Shown here: positions 5,707 through 15,936 of the stretch, in pieces
Layout: each line of letters begins with the position of its first letter
Numbering within the stretch: the first letter of the stretch is position 1
Source of the DNA: Mycobacterium sp.
Lineage (GTDB): Bacteria; Actinomycetota; Actinomycetes; Mycobacteriales; Mycobacteriaceae
NCBI GenBank assembly: GCA_044370595.1
Contig: JBILVF010000001.1
DNA length: 64,000 bases
Reading direction: 5' to 3' (one strand)
Program-made: the position numbers and the translations under genes
The notes under the pieces: generated by a model
Told to the model about the DNA's origin: nothing
Seen by the model: the letters and a program-made list of their open reading frames with translations, nothing else
The model's database searches: none

Positions 5707-6567
5707 TCAGTCTGAGTGGGAGACCGCACGCCCGACGATCAGCGGGTCGGGCTGACCAACCGCCTCATAGTCCTTGTCGGCATAGTCGAACTTACTCAGG
5801 ACATGGCGCATGGCGTTGACGCGAGCACGCTTCTTGTCGTTGCTCTTGACGACCGTCCACGGTGCGACCTCGGTGTCGGTCCAGGTGAACATGTCGACCT
5901 TGGCGGCGGTGTAGTCGTCCCACTTGTCCAGCGAGGCAAGGTCAGTCGGTGAAAGTTTCCATTGCCGGACCGGATCAACGTGCCGGATGGTGAACCGGGT
6001 CCGCTGTTCGGACGGGGACACCGAGAACCACAGCTTGGTCAGGCTGATTCCGTCGTTGACGAGCATCTGTTCGAACAGCGGCACCTGCCTGACGAATTCA
6101 GCGTGTTGCTTGGGCGTGCAGTAGCCCATGACGCGCTCGACCCCGGCGCGGTTGTACCAGGACCGATCGAAGAGCACGATCTCTCCGGCCGACGGCAGGT
6201 GTTTGACGTAGCGCTGGAAATACCACTGCGTGCTTTCCCTTTCGGTCGGCTTCTCCAGTGCCACGACGCGCGCTCCGCGCGGATTGAGGTGCTCCATGAA
6301 CCGCTTAATGGTGCCGCCTTTCCCGGCGGCGTCGCGGCCCTCGAACACGATCACATGCCGCAGTCCGTTGGCCTTGGTCCAGTTCTGCAACTTCAGCAGT
6401 TCGACCTGGAGGATGTGTTTCTGCTCTTCGTAGTCAGGTCGGGACATTCGATGGTCATAGGGATAGTTCTCCCGCCAGGTATCCACCGCGACGCCGCTGG
6501 GATCGAGCAGGATCGGATCGTCGTCCTCGTCGTCGACAACGGTGTAGCCATCCAGGTGTATCTGCAC
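5707..6567 (-). CDS. ppk2: Polyphosphate kinase 2 (class I-like)
   Basis: FEGRDAAGKGG Walker A, FDRSWYNRAGVERVMG; -10 TAGGGT 6 nt before GTG (leaderless). Confidence 0.95.
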   Translation of the reverse strand: MQIHLDGYTVVDDEDDDPILLDPSGVAVDTWRENYPYDHRMSRPDYEEQKHILQVELLKLQNWTKANGLRHVIVFEGRDAAGKGGTIKRFMEHLNPRGARVVALEKPTERESTQWYFQRYVKHLPSAGEIVLFDRSWYNRAGVERVMGYCTPKQHAEFVRQVPLFEQMLVNDGISLTKLWFSVSPSEQRTRFTIRHVDPVRQWKLSPTDLASLDKWDDYTAAKVDMFTWTDTEVAPWTVVKSNDKKRARVNAMRHVLSKFDYADKDYEAVGQPDPLIVGRAVSHSD

Positions 6568-6632: not shown

Positions 6633-7748
6633 TCAGCCGATGCTGGTGACCGCACTGGCGACCCGGGTCTGAAGTTCGGGCGGCAACGGGATGTAGCCGA
6701 CCTTGTTGAGATCGGTCTGGCCGACGGTCACCGCCGATTGCAGGAAGGCTTGCACGGCCTCGCCGGTTTGTTTGTCCGGGTAGCGGGAACAGACGATCGC
6801 ATAACCGGCCAGCAGCAGTGGATATCCGAACTTCTCGGTCGGCTGGTAGGCCGGGGTCATATCGAGGACCAGGTTGTTGCCCTGCCCGGTGATGGTGACC
6901 GGCGCGATGGACGTGCCGACCCAGTCGGTACCGATGTGGGTGACACCTGCGGGGGTCTTGATGTCGGCGGTCGGCAGACCCTGGTCGATGGCGAAGGACC
7001 ACTCGTTGTAGGAAATCGCGCCGGGTGTGTTCTTGACCTTCTCGGCAGCGCCCTGGTTCCCGGTGGCTCCCTGGCCGACCTTGCCGTTGAAGGTTTTACC
7101 GGCACCGGCCTTCCACGCCCCATCCGATGCAGCCTGCAGGTATTGCTGGAAGTTGTCGGTCGTACCGGACTGATCGCTGCGGTGGACGACCTTGATGTCC
7201 ATCGCCGGCATCGAGGTGCGCGGGGTGGGGTGCGCTCGGCCGGACGGCAGGTTGAGGGCGGAGATGGCTGGATCGTCCCAGCGGGTGATCGCCCCCGAGA
7301 AGATGCCCGCCAGCGTCGGTCCGTCGAGGATCAACACGTCGGCCCCGGGCAGGTTGTAGGTGATCGCGATCGGCCCGAAGACGATCGGGATGTTGAGGGC
7401 ATCAGCGCCATCGCACCGCTTCTTGGCCGCCTCGTACTCACCGCCTTGAAGGGGTGAGTCCGAGTTGCCGAAGTCGGTCTTCCCGCTGATGAATTCCTGG
7501 ACTCCCGCACCGGAGCCGTTGGCTGTGTAGTCAAGTCCCTTGTCCGGGCAGGCGCTCTGGTACGCCTTGACGAAGTGGGTGATGGCGTTGGCCTGAGCGG
7601 TCGAACCGCTGGCAGTCAGCGACTGTTTGCCGGCACAGACCACCCGGACGTCCTGGGCGTAGGGCTGCACCGGTCCGGTCTGCGAGCAACCTGCGGCCAG
7701 GAACGCGGCCACGGCGACGACAGCGGCAGGGTTCCGTCTGGATCTCAT
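6633..7748 (-). CDS. pstS: Phosphate-binding lipoprotein PstS (no pstCAB adjacent)
   Basis: Lipobox FLAAGC; ASGSTAQANA, DFGNSD, RSDQSGTTDNF motifs. Confidence 0.92.
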   Translation of the reverse strand: MRSRRNPAAVVAVAAFLAAGCSQTGPVQPYAQDVRVVCAGKQSLTASGSTAQANAITHFVKAYQSACPDKGLDYTANGSGAGVQEFISGKTDFGNSDSPLQGGEYEAAKKRCDGADALNIPIVFGPIAITYNLPGADVLILDGPTLAGIFSGAITRWDDPAISALNLPSGRAHPTPRTSMPAMDIKVVHRSDQSGTTDNFQQYLQAASDGAWKAGAGKTFNGKVGQGATGNQGAAEKVKNTPGAISYNEWSFAIDQGLPTADIKTPAGVTHIGTDWVGTSIAPVTITGQGNNLVLDMTPAYQPTEKFGYPLLLAGYAIVCSRYPDKQTGEAVQAFLQSAVTVGQTDLNKVGYIPLPPELQTRVASAVTSIG

Positions 7749-7964: not shown

Positions 7965-8699
7965 ATGCGGTCCGCGTACGGTGCCCAACTTCAGGCCCTG
8001 ACCGATCAGCTGGCGCACATTTGCCAGTTAACCGGTAGCGCAATGGAAAACGCGACTCACGCTGTTCTCCAAGCCGATCTGCTTCTTGCGGAGCAGGTTA
8101 TCGGAAGTCACGAGACCATCACGTTCCTCAGCTGCAAGGCTGAGGAGGCCGGTTTCCAACTGCTCGCCCTCCAGTCGCCGATGGGCCGTGATCTGCGGGC
8201 GGCGGTCAGCTCGCTACAAATCGTCGCCGACCTTGAACGTATGGCGGCACTGGCTGTCCACGTGGCCGAGATCGCCCGACTCCGCCATCCACAACACGCC
8301 CTGCCCGAAGACGTCAATGGCTACTTCGCCGAAATGGGCCGTATCGCTGTTGATTTGGCAGGGAGCGCGTACCAAGTCATCCAATCGTGCGACCTCGGCA
8401 GGGCCCGTTACATACGGGACGCCGATGATGCGATGGACGACCTGCACCGGCACTTGTTCACGGTATTGCTGGACCGAGAGTGGCGACACGGCACAACCGC
8501 CGCAGTAGACACGACTCTGCTGAGCCGTTATTACGAGCGGTTCGCCGACCACGCGGTGGAAATCTCGCGGCGGATCATTTTCCAGGCGACCGGGCAGATT
8601 CCCGCCGCGACCAGATCCGCCGCCGTCACACCCCGTTCACCGATTGCCGGTGTACGGCTCCGTGGCACAGCGCCGACAGTCCCCCACGGCCGTCCCTAG
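7965..8699 (+). CDS. phoU: Phosphate signalling protein PhoU (PhoY2-like)
   Basis: [39 protein letters not shown]; -10 TACCCT 6 nt before ATG. Confidence 0.93.
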
Positions 8700-9438
8700 G
8701 CAGGTGCAGTGGGAGCACCTGGACGTGAACGGTGGTACCACGCGCCCGGACGATGCGCCGTATCGACGCCCACAGGGAATCCTCTCCGAGGAAAGCAGTC
8801 GCGGTGGACGGACTGCCGTCCCGGTGGTGGTAGCTCAGACGCAGGGGTTGTACCGGTCGGACCGCGTCGATGGCGGCCTGGAACAGCGCGGGTCTGAAGT
8901 CACCGTGATCGGTGCCGCAATAGGTGGTGCCTTCCGGAAAGGCGACCACGGTGTGCCCGTTGCGCAGTCGGTCGACCACGGTGTCGACAACGGCGGGAAG
9001 CTGACGAAGGCTGGCCCGGTCGATGGGAATGACGCTGGCCATTCGCGCCGCGATGCCAACCGCCGGCCAGTCGAAGACATCGGCACGCGCCACGAAAGAG
9101 CCCGGTAGTACTGCTCCGATCGCGAAGATGTCGACCCAGGACACGTGGTTGCTGACGACCAGCATGCCCCGAAGATTGCGGATGGGGTCCCCGGAGAGGG
9201 TGAATCGGATGCCCAGGCATCCCAGCAGGGTCCGGCAGTAGAACCGCTGCGCGTGAGGCCGCCACGGCAGCGGGAGGGCGAGCACGGGCAGCGTCGTCAC
9301 AATCAGCCCGGCGGCGACGATCCGCCGGGCGGCCCGGATCGCGGCCACCAGGCGATGGTCGGGCTCACCGAGCCCGGCACGCACACATTCCGGTGTGCAC
9401 GACGTCTTCGGCAGCCAGGCATGCTCGGTCGCGGTCAC
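8626..9438 (-). CDS. Lysophospholipid acyltransferase, OlsA-like (Rv3026c-like)
   Basis: SNHVSWVD (HX4D) and FPEGTT motifs; start overlaps upstream GNAT stop. Confidence 0.85.
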
Positions 9439-10274
9439 CAGCGGTGCGTTCCCTGAGCGATCGCGGCGGCATGCTGACCTGCCGCAGCAGCAGACCGCAG
9501 CCGGGTGAGGAATCGCAGATCGACTCTGCGCTTGTCCAGAAGTGCGAGGAAGTCACCGACTCCGAACTGGGGATCGTGGGCGGGTTCACCGCAGATCTGT
9601 GCACCAAGCCGAAGGTAGCCACGCATCAGGGCGGGGATGGTCGTGCGTGCAGGCGGGTCGATGCTGTCAAGGGGGCGGCCTTCGAGTTGCACCGGCCGGT
9701 AGGGACGCACGGTGAACTCCGGGGCGGCCCCATGCCGCTGCAGGACCGCATCCCGGATTCCCCGAAGCTGACTCCCCGGCGGCCCCTCGGTGTGGGTGGG
9801 GACGGAGACGCAGCCGATGACGTAGTCGTAGCCGCAACGATCCAGGTAGGCCAGGATTCCGGTCCACATCATCAGAATCACCGCACCGTTGCGATGATCT
9901 GCACGCACCACGGCACGCCCCATCTCGACCGTGAAGGGCCGGAGCGCGTCCAGTGCGGAAATGTCGAATTCCCGCGCCGAGTAGAGTCCGCCTGCGGCGA
10001 TGGCGCCGGGCGGGGGCAGCATTCGATAGCAGCCCACAAGTTCACCGGTGTGGTCTTCGCGGACGATGAGGTGGTCGCAGTAGTCGTCGAAACAGTCGAT
10101 GTCGAGTTGGTCCTCATTGCGAAGCGTGAAGCCCGACTCGGTCGAGAACACTTCGTAACGGAGTCGCTGGGCGGCCAGGATGTGGCCGGGCTCGGACGTC
10201 AAGAGCAGGGTGTAGCGGGGATCGCGGTCGAATCTCGTTTGTTGCGGGGCGATGAGTACTGACGTTGCGCTCAC
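9435..10274 (-). CDS. GNAT N-acyltransferase, OlsB-like (Rv3027c-like)
   Basis: AAQRLRYEVF, D.FDDYCDHL, VGCYRML, EMGRAVV, LMRGYLRLGAQICGEPAHDPQFGVGD. Confidence 0.85.
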   Translation of the reverse strand: MSATSVLIAPQQTRFDRDPRYTLLLTSEPGHILAAQRLRYEVFSTESGFTLRNEDQLDIDCFDDYCDHLIVREDHTGELVGCYRMLPPPGAIAAGGLYSAREFDISALDALRPFTVEMGRAVVRADHRNGAVILMMWTGILAYLDRCGYDYVIGCVSVPTHTEGPPGSQLRGIRDAVLQRHGAAPEFTVRPYRPVQLEGRPLDSIDPPARTTIPALMRGYLRLGAQICGEPAHDPQFGVGDFLALLDKRRVDLRFLTRLRSAAAAGQHAAAIAQGTHRW

Positions 10275-10389
10275 AACCCGAACGATGTTCGGGTCAAATG
10301 TCTGTATCGAAACCGAACGATGTTGTGTCGGTGTACATAACGTTAATCATCGGAGCATCGCGCCCGCTTCGATGTCGGGCGGCGGAGCG

Positions 10390-11298
10390 TCAGGCCAACA
10401 GCGGGTAAACAAGACCGTCCACAGGCACCCCGGATAACGCGATCAGAACCAGTCGGCCCGAGTCGCCGGCCCGCCAGGGACCTTCGGTGCTGATGGTTCG
10501 CCGGGTGGCAACCCGATGGACCACCGTGCGTCGATCGGGCGACTCCTTCAGCTGGACAATGCCTTTCACGCGCAGCACCCCCTCCGGAAGCCCGTCCAGG
10601 AATCGTTCGAGCCGCGGCCGGTCGATGGGCTGTTCCAGCGGGACACTCACGGTGAGGTAGTCGTGGCCATGGTCGTGGGCGGTCGGTTCGATGCCCGGCA
10701 GGCCATCGTGGGCGAAGCCGGCCAGTGCCGACACCGGAACGTCGCCGTCGCGGGCATGAAGCACCGGCACACCCGGCGCGGACCGGGCCAGCCACTCATC
10801 GAGTTCAGCGAGTTGGGCGGCCGAGACCAGATCGGTCTTGTTGAGCACCAACACATCCGCAGCAGCGAGCTGGCGGCGGATGGTGCGGCCGACCACCGGA
10901 TGGCGCTCCCGGCGGCGCACCGTCTCGGCGTCCAGCAGCACCACGATCCCGTCCAGATCGAATCCGGGTGTCAGTGCGTGGTGGGAGATCGGGGCCGGGT
11001 CGGCGATACCGCTGGCTTCGATGACGACGTGATCCGGGGGGTCCTCGCGGTCGCGGACCGACCACAGTGCCGTCATGAGGTCACTGCCGATCATGCAACA
11101 CACGCACCCGTTGGTCAGCGTGATGGTGTCACCGTCGGCCGCGGCGATGAGGTCGCCGTCAATGCCGATGTTGCCGAAGTCGTTGACCAGCACGGCGATC
11201 CGGCGCCCTACCGTCTGACGAAGCACCCGGTTGAGCAATGTCGTCTTTCCCGAACCGAGGTATCCGCCGATCACCGTGACGGGGATCGACGGCTTCAC
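10390..11298 (-). CDS. COG0523/CobW family metallochaperone GTPase
   Basis: GGYLGSGKTT, VNDFG, GCVCC, EASG, NKTD, RVKG C-terminal domain; GTG 11298 overlaps upstream TGA (GTGA). Confidence 0.9.
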   Translation of the reverse strand: MKPSIPVTVIGGYLGSGKTTLLNRVLRQTVGRRIAVLVNDFGNIGIDGDLIAAADGDTITLTNGCVCCMIGSDLMTALWSVRDREDPPDHVVIEASGIADPAPISHHALTPGFDLDGIVVLLDAETVRRRERHPVVGRTIRRQLAAADVLVLNKTDLVSAAQLAELDEWLARSAPGVPVLHARDGDVPVSALAGFAHDGLPGIEPTAHDHGHDYLTVSVPLEQPIDRPRLERFLDGLPEGVLRVKGIVQLKESPDRRTVVHRVATRRTISTEGPWRAGDSGRLVLIALSGVPVDGLVYPLLA

Positions 11299-12944
11299 CG
11301 GCGTGCGGCCTGAAACACCTCGCCGCCCACCACGGTGCCCCACACCTCGATGTCGCGGATCCCCATCGGTTCGACGTCGAGTGGGGAGTCTTTGAGCGCT
11401 GCGAAATCGGCATACTTGCCAGCCTCGATGGAACCGATCTCGTGATCCATGTGCAACTGGAAGGCAGCACCGAGGGTGGCCGCGTGCAGCGCCTCGTACG
11501 GGGTGATCTTCTCGTACTCGCCGAGCACCCGGCCGCTGGGAGTGATGCGGTTGACCGCGCACCACATCGTCATCAGGTGGCCCACCGGGGTGACACCGGA
11601 GTCGGTGTGGAACGACAACGGCACGCCCGAGTTCAACGCCGTGCGGCACGCCCACATCCCACGGGTCCGCTCGGGGCCCATGGTGAGTTCATAGTGCTGG
11701 TCACCCCAATACCAGATGTGGTTGGTGAAGATGTTGGCGCAGATACCCAGCCGACCCATCCGGCGGTACTGGGCGGCGGTGGTCATCTGGGAGTGCTGCA
11801 CGACGTGGCGGTGATCCAGCCAGGCATCGGTGCGCAGCACCTCCTCGACGGCGTCGATGAAGATCTGCCCGGCGCCGTTGCCGTTGCAGTGGCAGTGCAC
11901 ATTGAGCTTGCGGGCATGAAACGCCCGAACGGCGGCCAACATGTCCTCCGGGGAGAACATCAGCAGCCCGTGGTCCTCGCCGGTGAAGTAGCCGGGCTCG
12001 TTGACCACCGCGGTCCAGCCCTGGATCGAACCGTCGGCGACCAGTTTGATACCGGGGGCACGCAGTTTGTCGGATTCGATCTCACGCAACCTCAGCGCGG
12101 CGTCGGCCACCGCGTTGTAGTCCACGGTGCTGCCCGGCATCACCGGCAGGTTGTAGAGCACCATTCGAGCCGGGAACGTCGGCGCGTTGACCGTGTCCTG
12201 CCAGACCTTCACCTGATCCGGCGCGATCAGGAGCATTCCGATGAGTTCGGTGGACGTCGTCACCCCGGCATTGCGGCACATCGCCGCATGGATCTCGATC
12301 GGCCTCGGTCCGAGGCTGGCGGCCATCAGCTTGTCGAACGCCGACTTGGCCAGGGTCATGGCCGGAGCCTCCTGAAGCTCGCCGTTGAGTTCACCGTCGG
12401 CGTCGCGGCCGATGCCCGGCGTCGGCGAATCTTTGGTGATGCCCTCCGCCTGCAGCAGCGCGGTGTTCACCGTCGCCAGATGTCCGCTGGCGTGCCGGAC
12501 GAAAACCGGCCGGACAGTGGAGACCTGATCCAGTTCGCGCCTGGACAGCCGCGGCAGATGCGGGAAGTAAATCGGGTCGAATCCGTTGGCCACCAGAGGT
12601 TCTCCCGGCGGCAGGACGGAGTCTTGAGCCTTCAGACGTTCGATGAGGTCCTCATAGCTGCGGATGGGTGTGGTGGCCCGGCCGTCCGACAGCGGGTAAG
12701 GGTGGTAGCCGACGTAGGGCATGAGTTCGCTGGCACTGTCAGCGGTATGGCCGTGGGCTTCGACGAAGCCGGGGATCAGGACGTGGTCGGCGAAGCGGTC
12801 GTCGACCTCCGCCGGTCCCCAGGACTGGCATTCCGCCAGGCTGCCAGCACATACGATCCGGCCCTCTCGCACCGCGACCGCCTGAACCTCCGGGTTGGCC
12901 GGATTCATGGTGACGACTTTGCGGGCCGTGAAAATCGTGGTCAC
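11295..12944 (-). CDS. Metal-dependent amidohydrolase (Amidohydro_3/YtcJ-like)
   Basis: PGFVEAHGH, KLVADGSIQG, HCNGN, QHSQ, GSIEAGKYADF. Confidence 0.9.
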   Translation of the reverse strand: MTTIFTARKVVTMNPANPEVQAVAVREGRIVCAGSLAECQSWGPAEVDDRFADHVLIPGFVEAHGHTADSASELMPYVGYHPYPLSDGRATTPIRSYEDLIERLKAQDSVLPPGEPLVANGFDPIYFPHLPRLSRRELDQVSTVRPVFVRHASGHLATVNTALLQAEGITKDSPTPGIGRDADGELNGELQEAPAMTLAKSAFDKLMAASLGPRPIEIHAAMCRNAGVTTSTELIGMLLIAPDQVKVWQDTVNAPTFPARMVLYNLPVMPGSTVDYNAVADAALRLREIESDKLRAPGIKLVADGSIQGWTAVVNEPGYFTGEDHGLLMFSPEDMLAAVRAFHARKLNVHCHCNGNGAGQIFIDAVEEVLRTDAWLDHRHVVQHSQMTTAAQYRRMGRLGICANIFTNHIWYWGDQHYELTMGPERTRGMWACRTALNSGVPLSFHTDSGVTPVGHLMTMWCAVNRITPSGRVLGEYEKITPYEALHAATLGAAFQLHMDHEIGSIEAGKYADFAALKDSPLDVEPMGIRDIEVWGTVVGGEVFQAARR

Positions 12945-12966
12945 GGCTCCCGAATCTAGGCCAGAG

Positions 12967-14097
12967 TCAGTCGTCGAGGGTGCGGAACAGCCGCTCGGCG
13001 GCGTTGACGTAGTCCTCGATGAACTCCAGGACCACCTCCCGGGCGGGTTTGATCTTGTTCATCAGACCGACACCCTGACCGACCCAGTAGGTGGACAGCG
13101 CCTGGGCGCCGGGGTGCCCGCCCTCGGCGAGCTTGTCGATGCGGCGCAACGCCGGTTCGGCGATCATCGCCTGCAGCGGCAGTGGCAACGGTTGGCGGCC
13201 TTTCGGACTGGGCGCCCAGGCGTCGGTCCAGTCCGACCGCAACTGCCGCGACGGCTTTCCGGTTCGGCCGGCCGAGCGGACGGTGTCCCGCGAGGACGCC
13301 GCGAGCATCTTCTGCTTGGTGAACGGAGCGGTCTCAGCCTCGTCGGTGGTCAACCACACCGAACCGGTCCACGCTCCCGCGGCGCCCATCGCCACACAGG
13401 CCGCCATCTGCCGGCCGGTGACGATGCCACCGGCGGCGAGCACCGGCACGTCCTTACCGCCGGGGATCTCGGCGATGGCGTCGAGCACCTCCGGGATGAG
13501 CACCAGCGTCGTCACCTCGCCGCAGTGCCCGCCGGCCTCGGTGCCCTGGACCACGATGAGGTCGACACCCGCCTGAACCTGCTTGATGGCATGTTCCTTG
13601 GCGCCGACCAGAGCAGCGACCGGAATCCCGCGTTCCTTGCCGGCCTCGATCATGTAATCCGGCGGCACGCCCAGCGCATTGGCCATCATCGCGATCGGAT
13701 GGTTGAGCGCAACGTCGAGTAATCCCTTGCCGGTGTCTCCACCGAGTGCGGAGGAACCCACTCGCAGTTCCTCGGCCTCGATGTCGTGTGCCTGGAGAAG
13801 TTCGTTGATGAAGTCCCGGTACTCCGCCGGGATACGTTCGGCCAACTGGTCGCGCGTGAGATTTTCGCCCTTGCCCTCGTACTTGGCCGGAACGATGATG
13901 TCCACGCCGTAGGGCTTGCCGTTGACGTGCTCGTCGATCCAGGTCAGTTCCTGCTCGAGTTGGTCGGGCCGAAACGCCACGCCGCCCAGAACGCCGAACC
14001 CGCCCGCGTTGGTCACCGCGGCAACCACGTCGCGGCAGTGACTGAAGGCGAACAGCGGGAACTCGATGCCGAACCGGTCACAAATCTCTGTCTTCAC
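12967..14097 (-). CDS. Nitronate monooxygenase-family FMN oxidoreductase (Rv1894c-like)
   Basis: FAFSHCRDVVAAV, QGTEAGGHCG, AAGGI; GTG 14097 chosen. Confidence 0.85.
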   Translation of the reverse strand: MKTEICDRFGIEFPLFAFSHCRDVVAAVTNAGGFGVLGGVAFRPDQLEQELTWIDEHVNGKPYGVDIIVPAKYEGKGENLTRDQLAERIPAEYRDFINELLQAHDIEAEELRVGSSALGGDTGKGLLDVALNHPIAMMANALGVPPDYMIEAGKERGIPVAALVGAKEHAIKQVQAGVDLIVVQGTEAGGHCGEVTTLVLIPEVLDAIAEIPGGKDVPVLAAGGIVTGRQMAACVAMGAAGAWTGSVWLTTDEAETAPFTKQKMLAASSRDTVRSAGRTGKPSRQLRSDWTDAWAPSPKGRQPLPLPLQAMIAEPALRRIDKLAEGGHPGAQALSTYWVGQGVGLMNKIKPAREVVLEFIEDYVNAAERLFRTLDD

Positions 14098-14130
14098 GCA
14101 GTCCAGTATGGACACGGGCGTGACCAGTCG

Positions 14131-14907
14131 TTACGGCAGGTCGAAGGGAAGCTCCACACCCTCATGGGCCAGGCAGTGCGTGCAGACGCGTTCGGCTCTC
14201 ACCCCGTCGATGGCGCGGTGCACCAACTCCTTGAACGGGCCGATGTTGCGCTCGAACTCCCCGAAAACGTCGACGGCGCGAACCCCCGCCCCGACCGTCA
14301 CCCCGGCGTCGATATCGGTCACCAAGGCGATTGCGGCGTAACACATTTCCAGTTCCCGGGCCAGCACAGCCTCGGGATATCCGGTCATGTTCACCAGCGT
14401 GAAACCCTGCCGGGCGAACCACTGACTTTCCGCGCGAGTGGAGAACCGCGGCCCCTGCACCACCACCATGGTGCCGCCGTCGACCACCCCGGGCTGGGCT
14501 GCGGCGACCGCGCGCAGCGTCGGGCAGTACGGGTCGGCGAATTCGACGTGGATGCCGCCGGAATCGAAGTAGGTGTCGGGGCGGCCGCGGGTGCGGTCCA
14601 CGAGTTGGTCGGGGACCACGACCGCGCCGGGGCCCAACTCGGCGGTGAGGCTGCCGACCGCGCACGGCCCGAACACTCTGCGCACCCCCAGCGCCCGTAG
14701 CGCCCACATGTTGGGGCGGTACGGCACGGTGTGCGGGGAGAACTCGTGGCTGCGACCGTGCCGGGGCAGGAAGGCGACCTCGTGGCAGCCCACCCGCCCG
14801 ACCGTGATCGGTGCGCTCGGCGGCCCGTAGGGCGTATCCACGGTGACGCTGCGCGCATCCCTGCCGAAGAAGGAGTAGAAGCCGCTTCCGCCGATCACGC
14901 CGATCAT
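14131..14907 (-). CDS. mtaP: S-methyl-5'-thioadenosine phosphorylase (Rv0535-like)
   Basis: IGVIGGSG, FLPRHG, GPRFSTRAES, VNMTGYPE; alternative start 14925. Confidence 0.92.
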   Translation of the reverse strand: MIGVIGGSGFYSFFGRDARSVTVDTPYGPPSAPITVGRVGCHEVAFLPRHGRSHEFSPHTVPYRPNMWALRALGVRRVFGPCAVGSLTAELGPGAVVVPDQLVDRTRGRPDTYFDSGGIHVEFADPYCPTLRAVAAAQPGVVDGGTMVVVQGPRFSTRAESQWFARQGFTLVNMTGYPEAVLARELEMCYAAIALVTDIDAGVTVGAGVRAVDVFGEFERNIGPFKELVHRAIDGVRAERVCTHCLAHEGVELPFDLP

Positions 14908-15063
14908 CCCTGCATTGTCGGGCACTAGGCTCCTTCGAATGTTCCGGATCGGCACGGCGATTGTCCTGGGCCTCTGCGCCGCAGTGGCGGTCGGGGTGAC
15001 CCGCAACCTGACCACCCGGCGGATGGCCAGCACCATCAACCTCGTCCTGGAACTGGCCGTCTG

Positions 15064-15936
15064 ATGGCAACCATCGCCCAGTGGGTCGAGGGGGCACGGC
15101 CGCGGACCCTGCCCAACGCCGTCGCCCCGGTCATCGCAGGCACCGGCGCCGCGGCATGGCTCGGGTCGGCGGTGTGGTGGAAAGCGTCACTGGCGCTGGC
15201 GGTTTCGCTGGCGTTGATCGTCGGTGTGAACTACGCCAACGACTACTCCGACGGGATCCGCGGCACCGACGACGAGCGGGCCGGTCCGCTGCGACTGGTG
15301 GGCTCGAAACTGGCCGCACCCCGGGCTGTGCTGACCGCCGCGCTGGTGAGCCTGGGCGTCGCGGCGGTGGCCGGCGTCGCGCTGGCACTGCTCACCGCGC
15401 CGTGGCTGATCGGCGTGGGGCTGCTGTGCATCGCGGGGGCATGGCTGTACACCGGGGGATCACGACCCTACGGATACGCCGGTTTCGGCGAGATCGCCGT
15501 CTTCGTGTTCTTCGGTCTGGTGGCGGTGTTGGGCACCCAGTACGCCCAGGCGTTGCGGGCAGACTGGGTGGGGGTGGCCGCCGCGGTCGCCGTCGGGGCG
15601 ATGTCCTCGGCGGTGCTGGTGGCCAACAATCTTCGGGACATCCCGACCGACCGGGTGGCCGGCAAGATGACGCTGGCGGTGCGCCTCGGCGATACGCGGA
15701 CCCGGATGCTCTACCTGTCGCTGCTCGGGGTCGCCGCGGTGATGACGGTGGTTTTGATGCGGGCCACCCCGTGGTGCGGGCTGGGCTTCCTGTCGTTGCC
15801 ACTGGCGGTGCGGGCCGCCAGGCCGATCCGCACCGGAAAGGGTGGACGTGAGCTGATCCCGGTACTGCGCGACACCGGCCTGACCATGCTCGTGTGGTCG
15901 ATCGCGGTGGCCGCCGCTCTGGCGGCTGCCGGCTGA
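15064..15936 (+). CDS. menA: 1,4-dihydroxy-2-naphthoate polyprenyltransferase
   Basis: [29 protein letters not shown]. Confidence 0.95.

Follow-up and report, generated by a model that had tools for sequence, protein, structure and literature searches.

A 2024 Chem Rev review names CobW and Nha3 as the only bacterial COG0523 clients or systems with mechanistic insight (PMC11672702), and work on ZigA and MigC has been held back by the missing bona fide client (PMC13001444). The pairing of a COG0523 gene with an amidohydrolase gene has already been published as annotation and is unexplored as biochemistry. In Ruegeria pomeroyi DSS-3, the cluster naaST-naaR-naaABB'CC' (SPO0657-0664) contains naaT (SPO0657, 'Metallochaperone, putative') and naaS (SPO0658, 'N-acetyltaurine amidohydrolase'), together with a LysR family regulator gene (naaR) and the genes of an ABC importer (naaABB'CC') (PMC4334477, citing Denger, Lehmann & Cook 2011). 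COG0523 subgroup 4 of Haas 2009 adjoins AtzB and 'metal-dependent hydrolases', subgroup 7 adjoins amidases and a cyclic imide hydrolase, and each subgroup was proposed to have its own target (BMC Genomics 10:470). Here we describe a pair formed by a YtcJ-type amidohydrolase (AH) and a COG0523 GTPase in a 64,000-nucleotide stretch of DNA, hereafter the window, from Mycobacterium sp. (GenBank assembly GCA_044370595.1, contig JBILVF010000001.1). A preliminary description of the window, made from its sequence alone, had proposed the pair as a candidate new client class. Its nearest relatives are the naa-type clusters with NaaS beside the putative metallochaperone NaaT, and the Haas pairs were also on record, so the pair is neither a new client class nor a new kind of system.

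The two genes and their junction are as follows.
11295-12944, minus strand: AH open reading frame, 549 aa, YtcJ-type, Amidohydro_3; proposed client enzyme
10390-11298, minus strand: COG0523 G3E GTPase open reading frame, 302 aa, with P-loop, GCVCC, NKTD and C-terminal RVKG; proposed metal insertase
11295-11298, minus strand: GTGA overlap of the AH stop codon TGA and the GTPase start codon GTG, read from the sequence

Both reading frames, their domains and the overlap proved to be as first described, and so did the position of a TAGATT hexamer before the AH gene and a 22-nt gap to the next gene upstream. The longest open reading frame in the GTPase frame begins far within the AH gene. Since the P-loop of the relatives falls 8-17 codons past the start in the overlap, GTGA is the true GTPase start. 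We consider it probable that the pair is a self-contained module in which the GTPase inserts metal into the co-encoded AH. The host assembly is 3.75 Mb in 268 contigs and 99.3% complete, and its closest relatives are freshwater Mycobacterium/Mycobacteriaceae metagenome-assembled genomes.

The pair recurs far above chance. A protein search found AH orthologues of 54-100% identity in Mycobacterium, Acidimicrobiia/Ilumatobacteraceae, Alphaproteobacteria and Pseudomonadales assemblies. Eighty loci from species-representative genomes were fetched with an alignment of the AH family, and the GTPase was sought in them with the window proteins and with more distant GTPases. Two loci (L033 and L042) end inside the AH gene and are uninformative; at the other 78, where the AH orthologues are 52-91% identical, the GTPase is present in 74, placed as follows.
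Directly downstream, same strand: 69 loci (L023 ends after 47 GTPase residues)
Directly upstream: 1 locus (L006)
Adjacent but convergent: 3 loci (L061, L068, L080)
4.6 kb away: 1 locus (L073)
No GTPase within 3-6 kb: 4 loci (L026, L038, L040, L044)

The carriers belong to Actinomycetota (Mycobacteriaceae, Acidimicrobiia), Gamma- and Alphaproteobacteria, Chloroflexota (Thermomicrobiales) and Verrucomicrobiota (Limisphaerales). Where the GTPase gene directly follows the AH gene on the same strand (64 loci), the spacing between the genes is -4 to +5 nt in 57, and 46 could have a 4-nt NTGA overlap whose start codon shares the frame of the P-loop. The two proteins also diverge together. Pairwise identities of AH and GTPase at 67 loci are correlated with r = 0.91 (Mantel test, none of 999 permutations as high) and still with r = 0.80 among pairs below 70% AH identity, with the GTPase diverging faster (mean identity 44% vs 61% for AH). 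The pairing is thus conserved elsewhere in the co-occurrence analysis that the preliminary description had proposed as a check, and its view of a dedicated pair is borne out by the adjacency across phyla, the NTGA overlaps, the co-divergence and the single GTPase clade described below. From these comparisons, a dedicated two-gene unit is well supported.

No third gene was found to be conserved with the pair by clustering of neighbouring open reading frames and by tallies of their Pfam families. The commonest neighbours across phyla are acyl-CoA ligases (15 loci) and short-chain dehydrogenases (14 loci), and among the 93 nearest flanking reading frames outside Mycobacteriaceae no Pfam family occurs in more than five; these tallies are lower bounds, as the greedy choice of reading frames at times took the wrong strand. 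Ten downstream genes that were inspected have ten unrelated functions. We also looked for an AH-GTPase fusion, which would be expected at about 850 aa, and there was none among the best 120 protein matches of near length, while the search for longer proteins spanned those of at least 962 aa only. Among 24 genomes of the same genus, both orthologues occur only in one (G006, 86% and 76% identity), where they are adjacent, and the remaining members have only AH homologues of 28-36% identity. A freshwater Mycobacteriaceae lineage with small genomes has probably gained the two genes together, because the pair was not found in 23 of the 24 other genus members searched, its nearest non-mycobacterial relatives are in Acidimicrobiia (72%), and the contexts of insertion vary.

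The GTPase belongs to COG0523. It matches the Pfam families cobW (165.9 bits, cut-off 20.7) and CobW_C (50.1 bits, cut-off 22), and its closest solved relative is YjiA (1NIJ). The COG0523 motif set is complete, with the G1 P-loop, the CxCC loop, Walker B/G3, NKxD and the C-terminal RxKG; by residue, we located GYLGSGKT at 12, GCVCC at 64, IEASG at 93, NKTD at 153, a short HDHGH run at 208 and RVKG at 243. RVKG is an instance of the RxKG arginine-finger motif, the sole invariant feature of COG0523 C-terminal domains (PMC13001444). The protein scores below the NCBIfam equivalog cut-offs for CobW (163.8 vs 332.1), YjiA-type PRK11537 (121.2 vs 361), ZigA (112.5 vs 600) and MRF (30.3 vs 375). Among the AH-linked GTPases, CxCC is found in 69 of 69 and RxKG in 68 of 69. 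The PETEEY motif of the ZigA/Nha3/ZagA cluster (sequence similarity network cluster 1) is found in none of the 69, and it is present in one same-genus paralogue that adjoins ZnuA.

In a careful tree search, the AH-linked GTPases formed a single clade (support 87/95) apart from the same-genus paralogues. Constraining them to one clade was not rejected (approximately unbiased test, p = 0.78), and the constrained tree had a better likelihood than the free search. Five same-genus paralogues without CxCC were remote, and eleven with CxCC made a clade of their own. None of the five paralogue neighbourhoods that were examined has an adjacent amidohydrolase. Some paralogues (G009, G018) have distant AH homologues at 20-30 kb, not next to them, and their immediate neighbours are unrelated. 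Two metagenome bins with the titles 'Bifidobacterium breve' (L028) and 'Bordetella parapertussis' (L031) carry AH-GTPase pairs whose GTPases group closely in the tree with the one from Actinobacteria bacterium IMCC26256 (L032), with a common motif layout. The organism names on these two records look wrong.

The other member of the pair is a YtcJ-like enzyme of the Amidohydro_3 family (PF07969, 260.9 bits, 4.8e-77, cut-off 29.7). Amidohydro_1 was also matched, and no NCBIfam equivalog cut-off was reached. An AlphaFold2 (AF2) model (pLDDT 94.4, pTM 0.93) had as its top PDB matches in Foldseek 3IGH/3ICJ, YtcJ-like uncharacterised hydrolases from Pyrococcus of 20% identity, followed by generic amidohydrolases; the fold thus agrees with the Pfam assignment. 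Structure gave no function, as Foldseek returned only these uncharacterised and generic enzymes and the ESM Atlas only clusters named 'amidohydrolase'. H64, H66, K300, H352, H378, H380, H384, H446 and D448 are invariant in 53 AH orthologues and in the NaaS-like clade. In an alignment to 3ICJ, the HxH motif, the lysine, the two histidines and the aspartate of AH match a two-metal site with a bridging lysine, so that the predicted ligand set is intact. In the amidohydrolase superfamily, the bridging lysine of such a site normally carries a carbamate.

In Mycobacteriaceae the AH gene is preceded by a conserved promoter-like element:
12953-12958, minus strand: -10-like hexamer TAGATT, 8 nt before the AH start codon GTG at 12944; candidate promoter of a leaderless or near-leaderless transcript

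When the window was compared with 19 Mycobacteriaceae loci, all 20 sequences had a hexamer at this place whose second base is A and whose sixth is T. It conforms to TANNNT in 18 of them, and its distance to the start codon is 8 nt, or 7 nt in L008. It is kept whether the upstream gene is an NMO-type oxidoreductase gene, the GTPase gene (L006) or another gene. The spacer between the hexamer and the start varies freely, and the GGGAG in the window's spacer is not conserved. The preliminary description had proposed TAGATT as a leaderless -10 candidate and had seen no riboswitch; the first now has the support of this comparison, and on the second, an Rfam scan of the whole window at the gathering threshold matched neither a riboswitch nor any other RNA family. 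A consensus scan of 8500-15300 for promoters and terminators found nothing, so the support for the -10 hexamer is comparative only. The pattern is consistent with a promoter of the pair's own and with an mRNA that is leaderless or nearly so. As a spacing of 8 nt is at the long end, the transcript may start 1-2 nt before the GTG.

Taken together, the proposed module might work as follows. AH would be a cytoplasmic YtcJ-type hydrolase with a carbamylated-lysine two-metal site made of HxH, Lys300, His352, His378/380 and Asp448. The GTPase would be translated from the same message, mostly through the stop/start overlap, and in freshwater Mycobacteriaceae this message would come from the pair's own promoter as a leaderless or near-leaderless mRNA. 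The CxCC loop of the GTPase would bind the metal, its C-terminal domain would dock onto newly made apo-AH, and GTP hydrolysis, triggered by the arginine finger of the C-terminal RxKG, would release the metal into the active site. The GTPase would thus be a constitutive maturation factor outside the Zur response, as Nha3 is for the Fe-type nitrile hydratase and UreG is for urease. The most likely substrate of AH would be a small compound akin to N-acetyltaurine, either an N-acyl amine or an amide; the N-formyl substrates suggested in the preliminary description found no support.

Several points weigh against this proposal. At four loci no GTPase lies within 3-6 kb, and the GTPase is convergent at three others and 4.6 kb off at one more, which indicates that AH is not strictly dependent on an adjacent partner. 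Shared species history could also give co-divergence. No COG0523 protein is known from experiment to metallate a YtcJ-type amidohydrolase, and the role of NaaT is itself annotation. The substrate is suggested by a sister clade of 41-48% identity, which is weak ground. The 8-nt spacing is long for a leaderless start, and GGGAG lies 2 nt before the GTG in the window.

The alternative that survives best concerns the substrate. The pair could be a plain NaaS/NaaT orthologue, in which case AH would split N-acetyltaurine into taurine and acetate, like its counterparts in Cupriavidus, Delftia and Ruegeria, and its function would not be new. Denger, Lehmann and Cook (2011) are said to have worked on the naa cluster of Cupriavidus necator H16. 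A tblastn search of plasmids and chromids found AH relatives of 41-44% identity in cultured bacteria. In Paracoccus aminovorans the hydrolase comes after a LysR gene and five genes for ABC transport and before a 'GTP-binding protein', which matches the R. pomeroyi layout. In Burkholderia multivorans the order is LysR, DUF3311, a sodium:solute symporter (SSS), hydrolase and GTPase, then TauD and an ABC system, and in Caballeronia it is DUF3311, symporter, hydrolase and GTPase, with xsc 6 kb away. The NaaS/NaaT-like references were thus assigned by synteny. The Ruegeria pomeroyi match among the plasmids is not SPO0658 but a solo paralogue encoded on the megaplasmid. No named N-acetyltaurine amidohydrolase came up in a search that used the Paracoccus enzyme as query.

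In the AH tree, the window clade and the NaaS-like clade, each with support 99, are sisters with a joint support of 93. The two clades have 101 invariant positions in common, including all the extra His/Asn/Gln motifs round the metal site, and 10 fixed differences; judging from these residues, their chemistry is probably close. The partner GTPases largely mirror the same sister relation, apart from the Paracoccus NaaT-like GTPase, which groups with the Mesorhizobium one. Outside both AH clades are a Mesorhizobium hydrolase-GTPase pair and two hydrolases without a GTPase partner. The Mesorhizobium pair (Mesorhizobium sp. WSM4875 plasmid, L108, 5986-8726) is a third type of YtcJ-like and COG0523 pair. 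It has 34% identity to the window AH, sits behind a branched-chain-amino-acid-type ABC importer and is without the HRH and YWGDxH motifs common to the window and NaaS-like clades.

The sister relation of both proteins and the common invariant positions speak for orthology with NaaS/NaaT. N-acetyltaurine is an algal exometabolite in aquatic habitats, and the carriers of the window pair are mostly aquatic. However, the two AH clades are separately supported and both occur in Proteobacteria, and identity is 41-48% between them and at least 50% in the within-clade pairs compared; the NaaS-like sequences in this comparison are synteny-assigned and none is experimentally verified. The naa regulator with an ABC or DUF3311/SSS transporter layout was found at none of the 80 loci. 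Moreover, in the 99.3%-complete host genome the best match to Xsc has 312 bits (cut-off 676) and TauD has no match. On balance, we regard a plain NaaS/NaaT orthologue as possible but unlikely.

A further alternative concerns the role of the GTPase. It might be a regulatory or structural subunit, for example a GTP-gated activator or a folding or assembly factor, with a CxCC that is structural or sensing and does not donate metal. Adjacency and co-divergence indicate a partnership and not metal transfer as such, and metal delivery is undemonstrated for most COG0523 proteins (PMC11672702, PMC13001444). Against this, CxCC is invariant in the AH-linked GTPases, the partner is a metalloenzyme with an intact predicted two-metal ligand set, and metal insertion has precedents in the CobW, Nha3 and ZNG1 systems (PMC11672702). 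Such a role is improbable in our judgement, and we continue to prefer metal insertion into AH.

The commonest association of COG0523 proteins is with Zur regulons (PMC2770081, PMC11672702), and the actinobacterial Zur box is a 7-1-7 repeat, TGAAAATGATTTTCA (PMC2823685). No box with up to two mismatches was found at the pair locus. Genome-wide, there are five such boxes, all on two contigs that also carry other cobW-domain genes, and a control with the reversed pattern gave 0 matches:
C122 5188-5202 and 6389-6403: Zur boxes, up to two mismatches
C142 7819-7833, 12009-12023 and 12064-12078: Zur boxes, up to two mismatches
C122 4657-5001: other cobW-domain gene
C142 5995-6543 and 11451-11825: other cobW-domain genes

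These boxes outline a Zur regulon, and the C142 paralogue that was extracted lacks CxCC. They serve as a positive control from the same genome, and with them the preliminary description's failure to see a Zur-like palindrome at the locus gains weight. The sole nearby Zur-like match is 12/15 at 12929-12943, over AH codons 1-5, and it reaches 13/15 in several relatives. Ten of the 20 compared sequences have ATT, a rare codon at this GC content of third codon positions (GC3), and the other ten have ATC, which breaks the match. We rejected this match as a real box, since the encoded residues N/T-T-I-F-T are conserved even in Proteobacteria and ATT and ATC are split 10:10. Coding constraint probably accounts for it, or else the AT-richness of a leaderless start, and a slight doubt is left.

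Thus, although COG0523 proteins as a family lean towards Zur control and a 12/15 match does cover the first AH codons, it is very improbable that the GTPase is a general zinc-allocation or buffering factor of the ZigA/YciC/ZagA type, with many clients under zinc limitation and a place next to a zinc enzyme by chance, as boxes with up to two mismatches are only on contigs with other cobW-domain genes, the 12/15 match lies in conserved codons and is broken by ATC in half of the relatives, PETEEY is absent from all 69 AH-linked GTPases and occurs in the ZnuA-adjoining paralogue, the ZigA, YjiA and CobW scores are below their cut-offs, and the tight cross-phylum pairing argues for a single client.

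The surroundings of the pair in the window run in the order PPK2, PstS, PhoU, PF01553 acyltransferase, OlsB-like GNAT, the AH-GTPase pair, NMO, PNP_UDP_1, MenA, DUF4229 and a cytochrome c assembly gene. The neighbours with coordinates are as follows.
5707-6567, minus strand: PPK2
6633-7748, minus strand: PstS
7965-8699, plus strand: PhoU
8626-9438, minus strand: PF01553 acyltransferase
9435-10274, minus strand: OlsB-like N-acyltransferase GNAT (Acetyltransf_5), overlapping the start of the PF01553 acyltransferase
12967-14115: NMO-type FMN oxidoreductase gene (PF03060), ending 22 nt upstream of the AH start
14131-15039, minus strand: PNP_UDP_1 gene (nucleoside phosphorylase/nucleosidase family), between MenA and NMO

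By clustering of open reading frames, the NMO, MenA, GNAT and acyltransferase neighbours are restricted to Mycobacteriaceae. The preliminary description had suggested that the FMN oxidoreductase may share the pathway of the pair, and we dropped it as a pathway partner. NMO adjoins the pair only in Mycobacteriaceae, where it is sometimes about 2 kb off or absent, and it never does so at the loci of other phyla; the conserved promoter-like element of AH also argues against obligatory co-transcription with NMO. It is therefore a lineage-specific neighbour. The PNP_UDP_1 gene has no counterpart at any of the 80 related loci, and a DUF1345 gene fills the gap in several Mycobacteriaceae relatives.

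The OlsB-like GNAT and the PF01553 acyltransferase have the arrangement of ornithine/amino-lipid synthesis genes and adjoin phosphate-regulon genes. The two lie downstream of the GTPase in the window and in eight Mycobacteriaceae loci. Beside phosphate genes, they may serve to make phosphorus-free membrane lipids when phosphate is limiting. A metagenome protein of 1139 aa (P0124), an AH relative of 37% identity, is fused to glycerol-3-phosphate-acyltransferase-type domains (PF19277, PF01553). Together with the acyltransferase genes by the window pair, this fusion hints faintly that some relatives act on a lipid amide.

The window clade is common in freshwater and marine metagenome-assembled genomes and may mark the use of a small dissolved amide. 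Beyond the module itself, we put forward tentatively, and with less than even confidence, that the clade is a distinct and widespread aquatic amidase for a small amide other than N-acetyltaurine, and that together with NaaS/NaaT and the Mesorhizobium-type pair it points to a general, ancient rule by which one COG0523 branch is dedicated to building the carbamylated-lysine two-metal centre of YtcJ-type amidohydrolases. The value of the pair lies in its testability as a clean experimental system and in its tie to the neglected NaaS/NaaT precedent. As a two-gene unit with no other accessory gene and no link to zinc starvation, it would be about the simplest test of GTP-dependent metal insertion, of client recognition by the C-terminal domain and of metal identity.

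Among known systems, the pair is most like NaaS/NaaT. In both, a YtcJ-type AH (about 545-555 aa) comes directly before a COG0523 GTPase (about 300-330 aa) that carries CxCC and RxKG but no PETEEY, and the AH and GTPase clades are sisters. In contrast, the window AH is outside the separately supported NaaS-like clade at the 41-48% identity given above, and naa-type loci have LysR, an ABC or DUF3311/SSS importer and tauD or xsc nearby, while the window clade has none of these. The clusters of Haas subgroup 4 are similar in that COG0523 is clustered with amidohydrolase-superfamily genes and is not linked to Zur, but those clusters, which we compared by description only, are proteobacterial and have aromatic- or purine-type catabolic genes (UbiD/X, CoxLSM, UraA). 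Among solved structures, 3ICJ/3IGH is the best match to AH (sequence E 1e-15, Foldseek 2e-30, TM 0.77 on target), but it is only about 20% identical and its function is uncharacterised.

Nha3 (P44K/P47K) is likewise a COG0523 protein for one co-encoded metalloenzyme, the Fe-type nitrile hydratase, outside the Zur regulon (PMC11672702). Its client is a nitrile hydratase and not an amidohydrolase, and Nha3 is in the PETEEY cluster (PMC13001444), whereas the window GTPase lacks this motif. There were no nitrile hydratase genes among the window genes or among the neighbour families at the related loci scanned. Urease belongs to the amidohydrolase superfamily and has a two-metal site bridged by a carbamylated lysine. 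UreG is of another G3E branch and needs UreD, UreF and UreE, whereas the window unit has one accessory gene and nickel is not indicated. Urease is nevertheless an amidohydrolase-superfamily client matured by a G3E GTPase, and it offers the best analogy for the proposed mechanism. If the broader proposal is true, these pairs would be a single-protein counterpart of the UreDEFG machinery, and the study of metallochaperones would gain from them a simple client system in bacteria.

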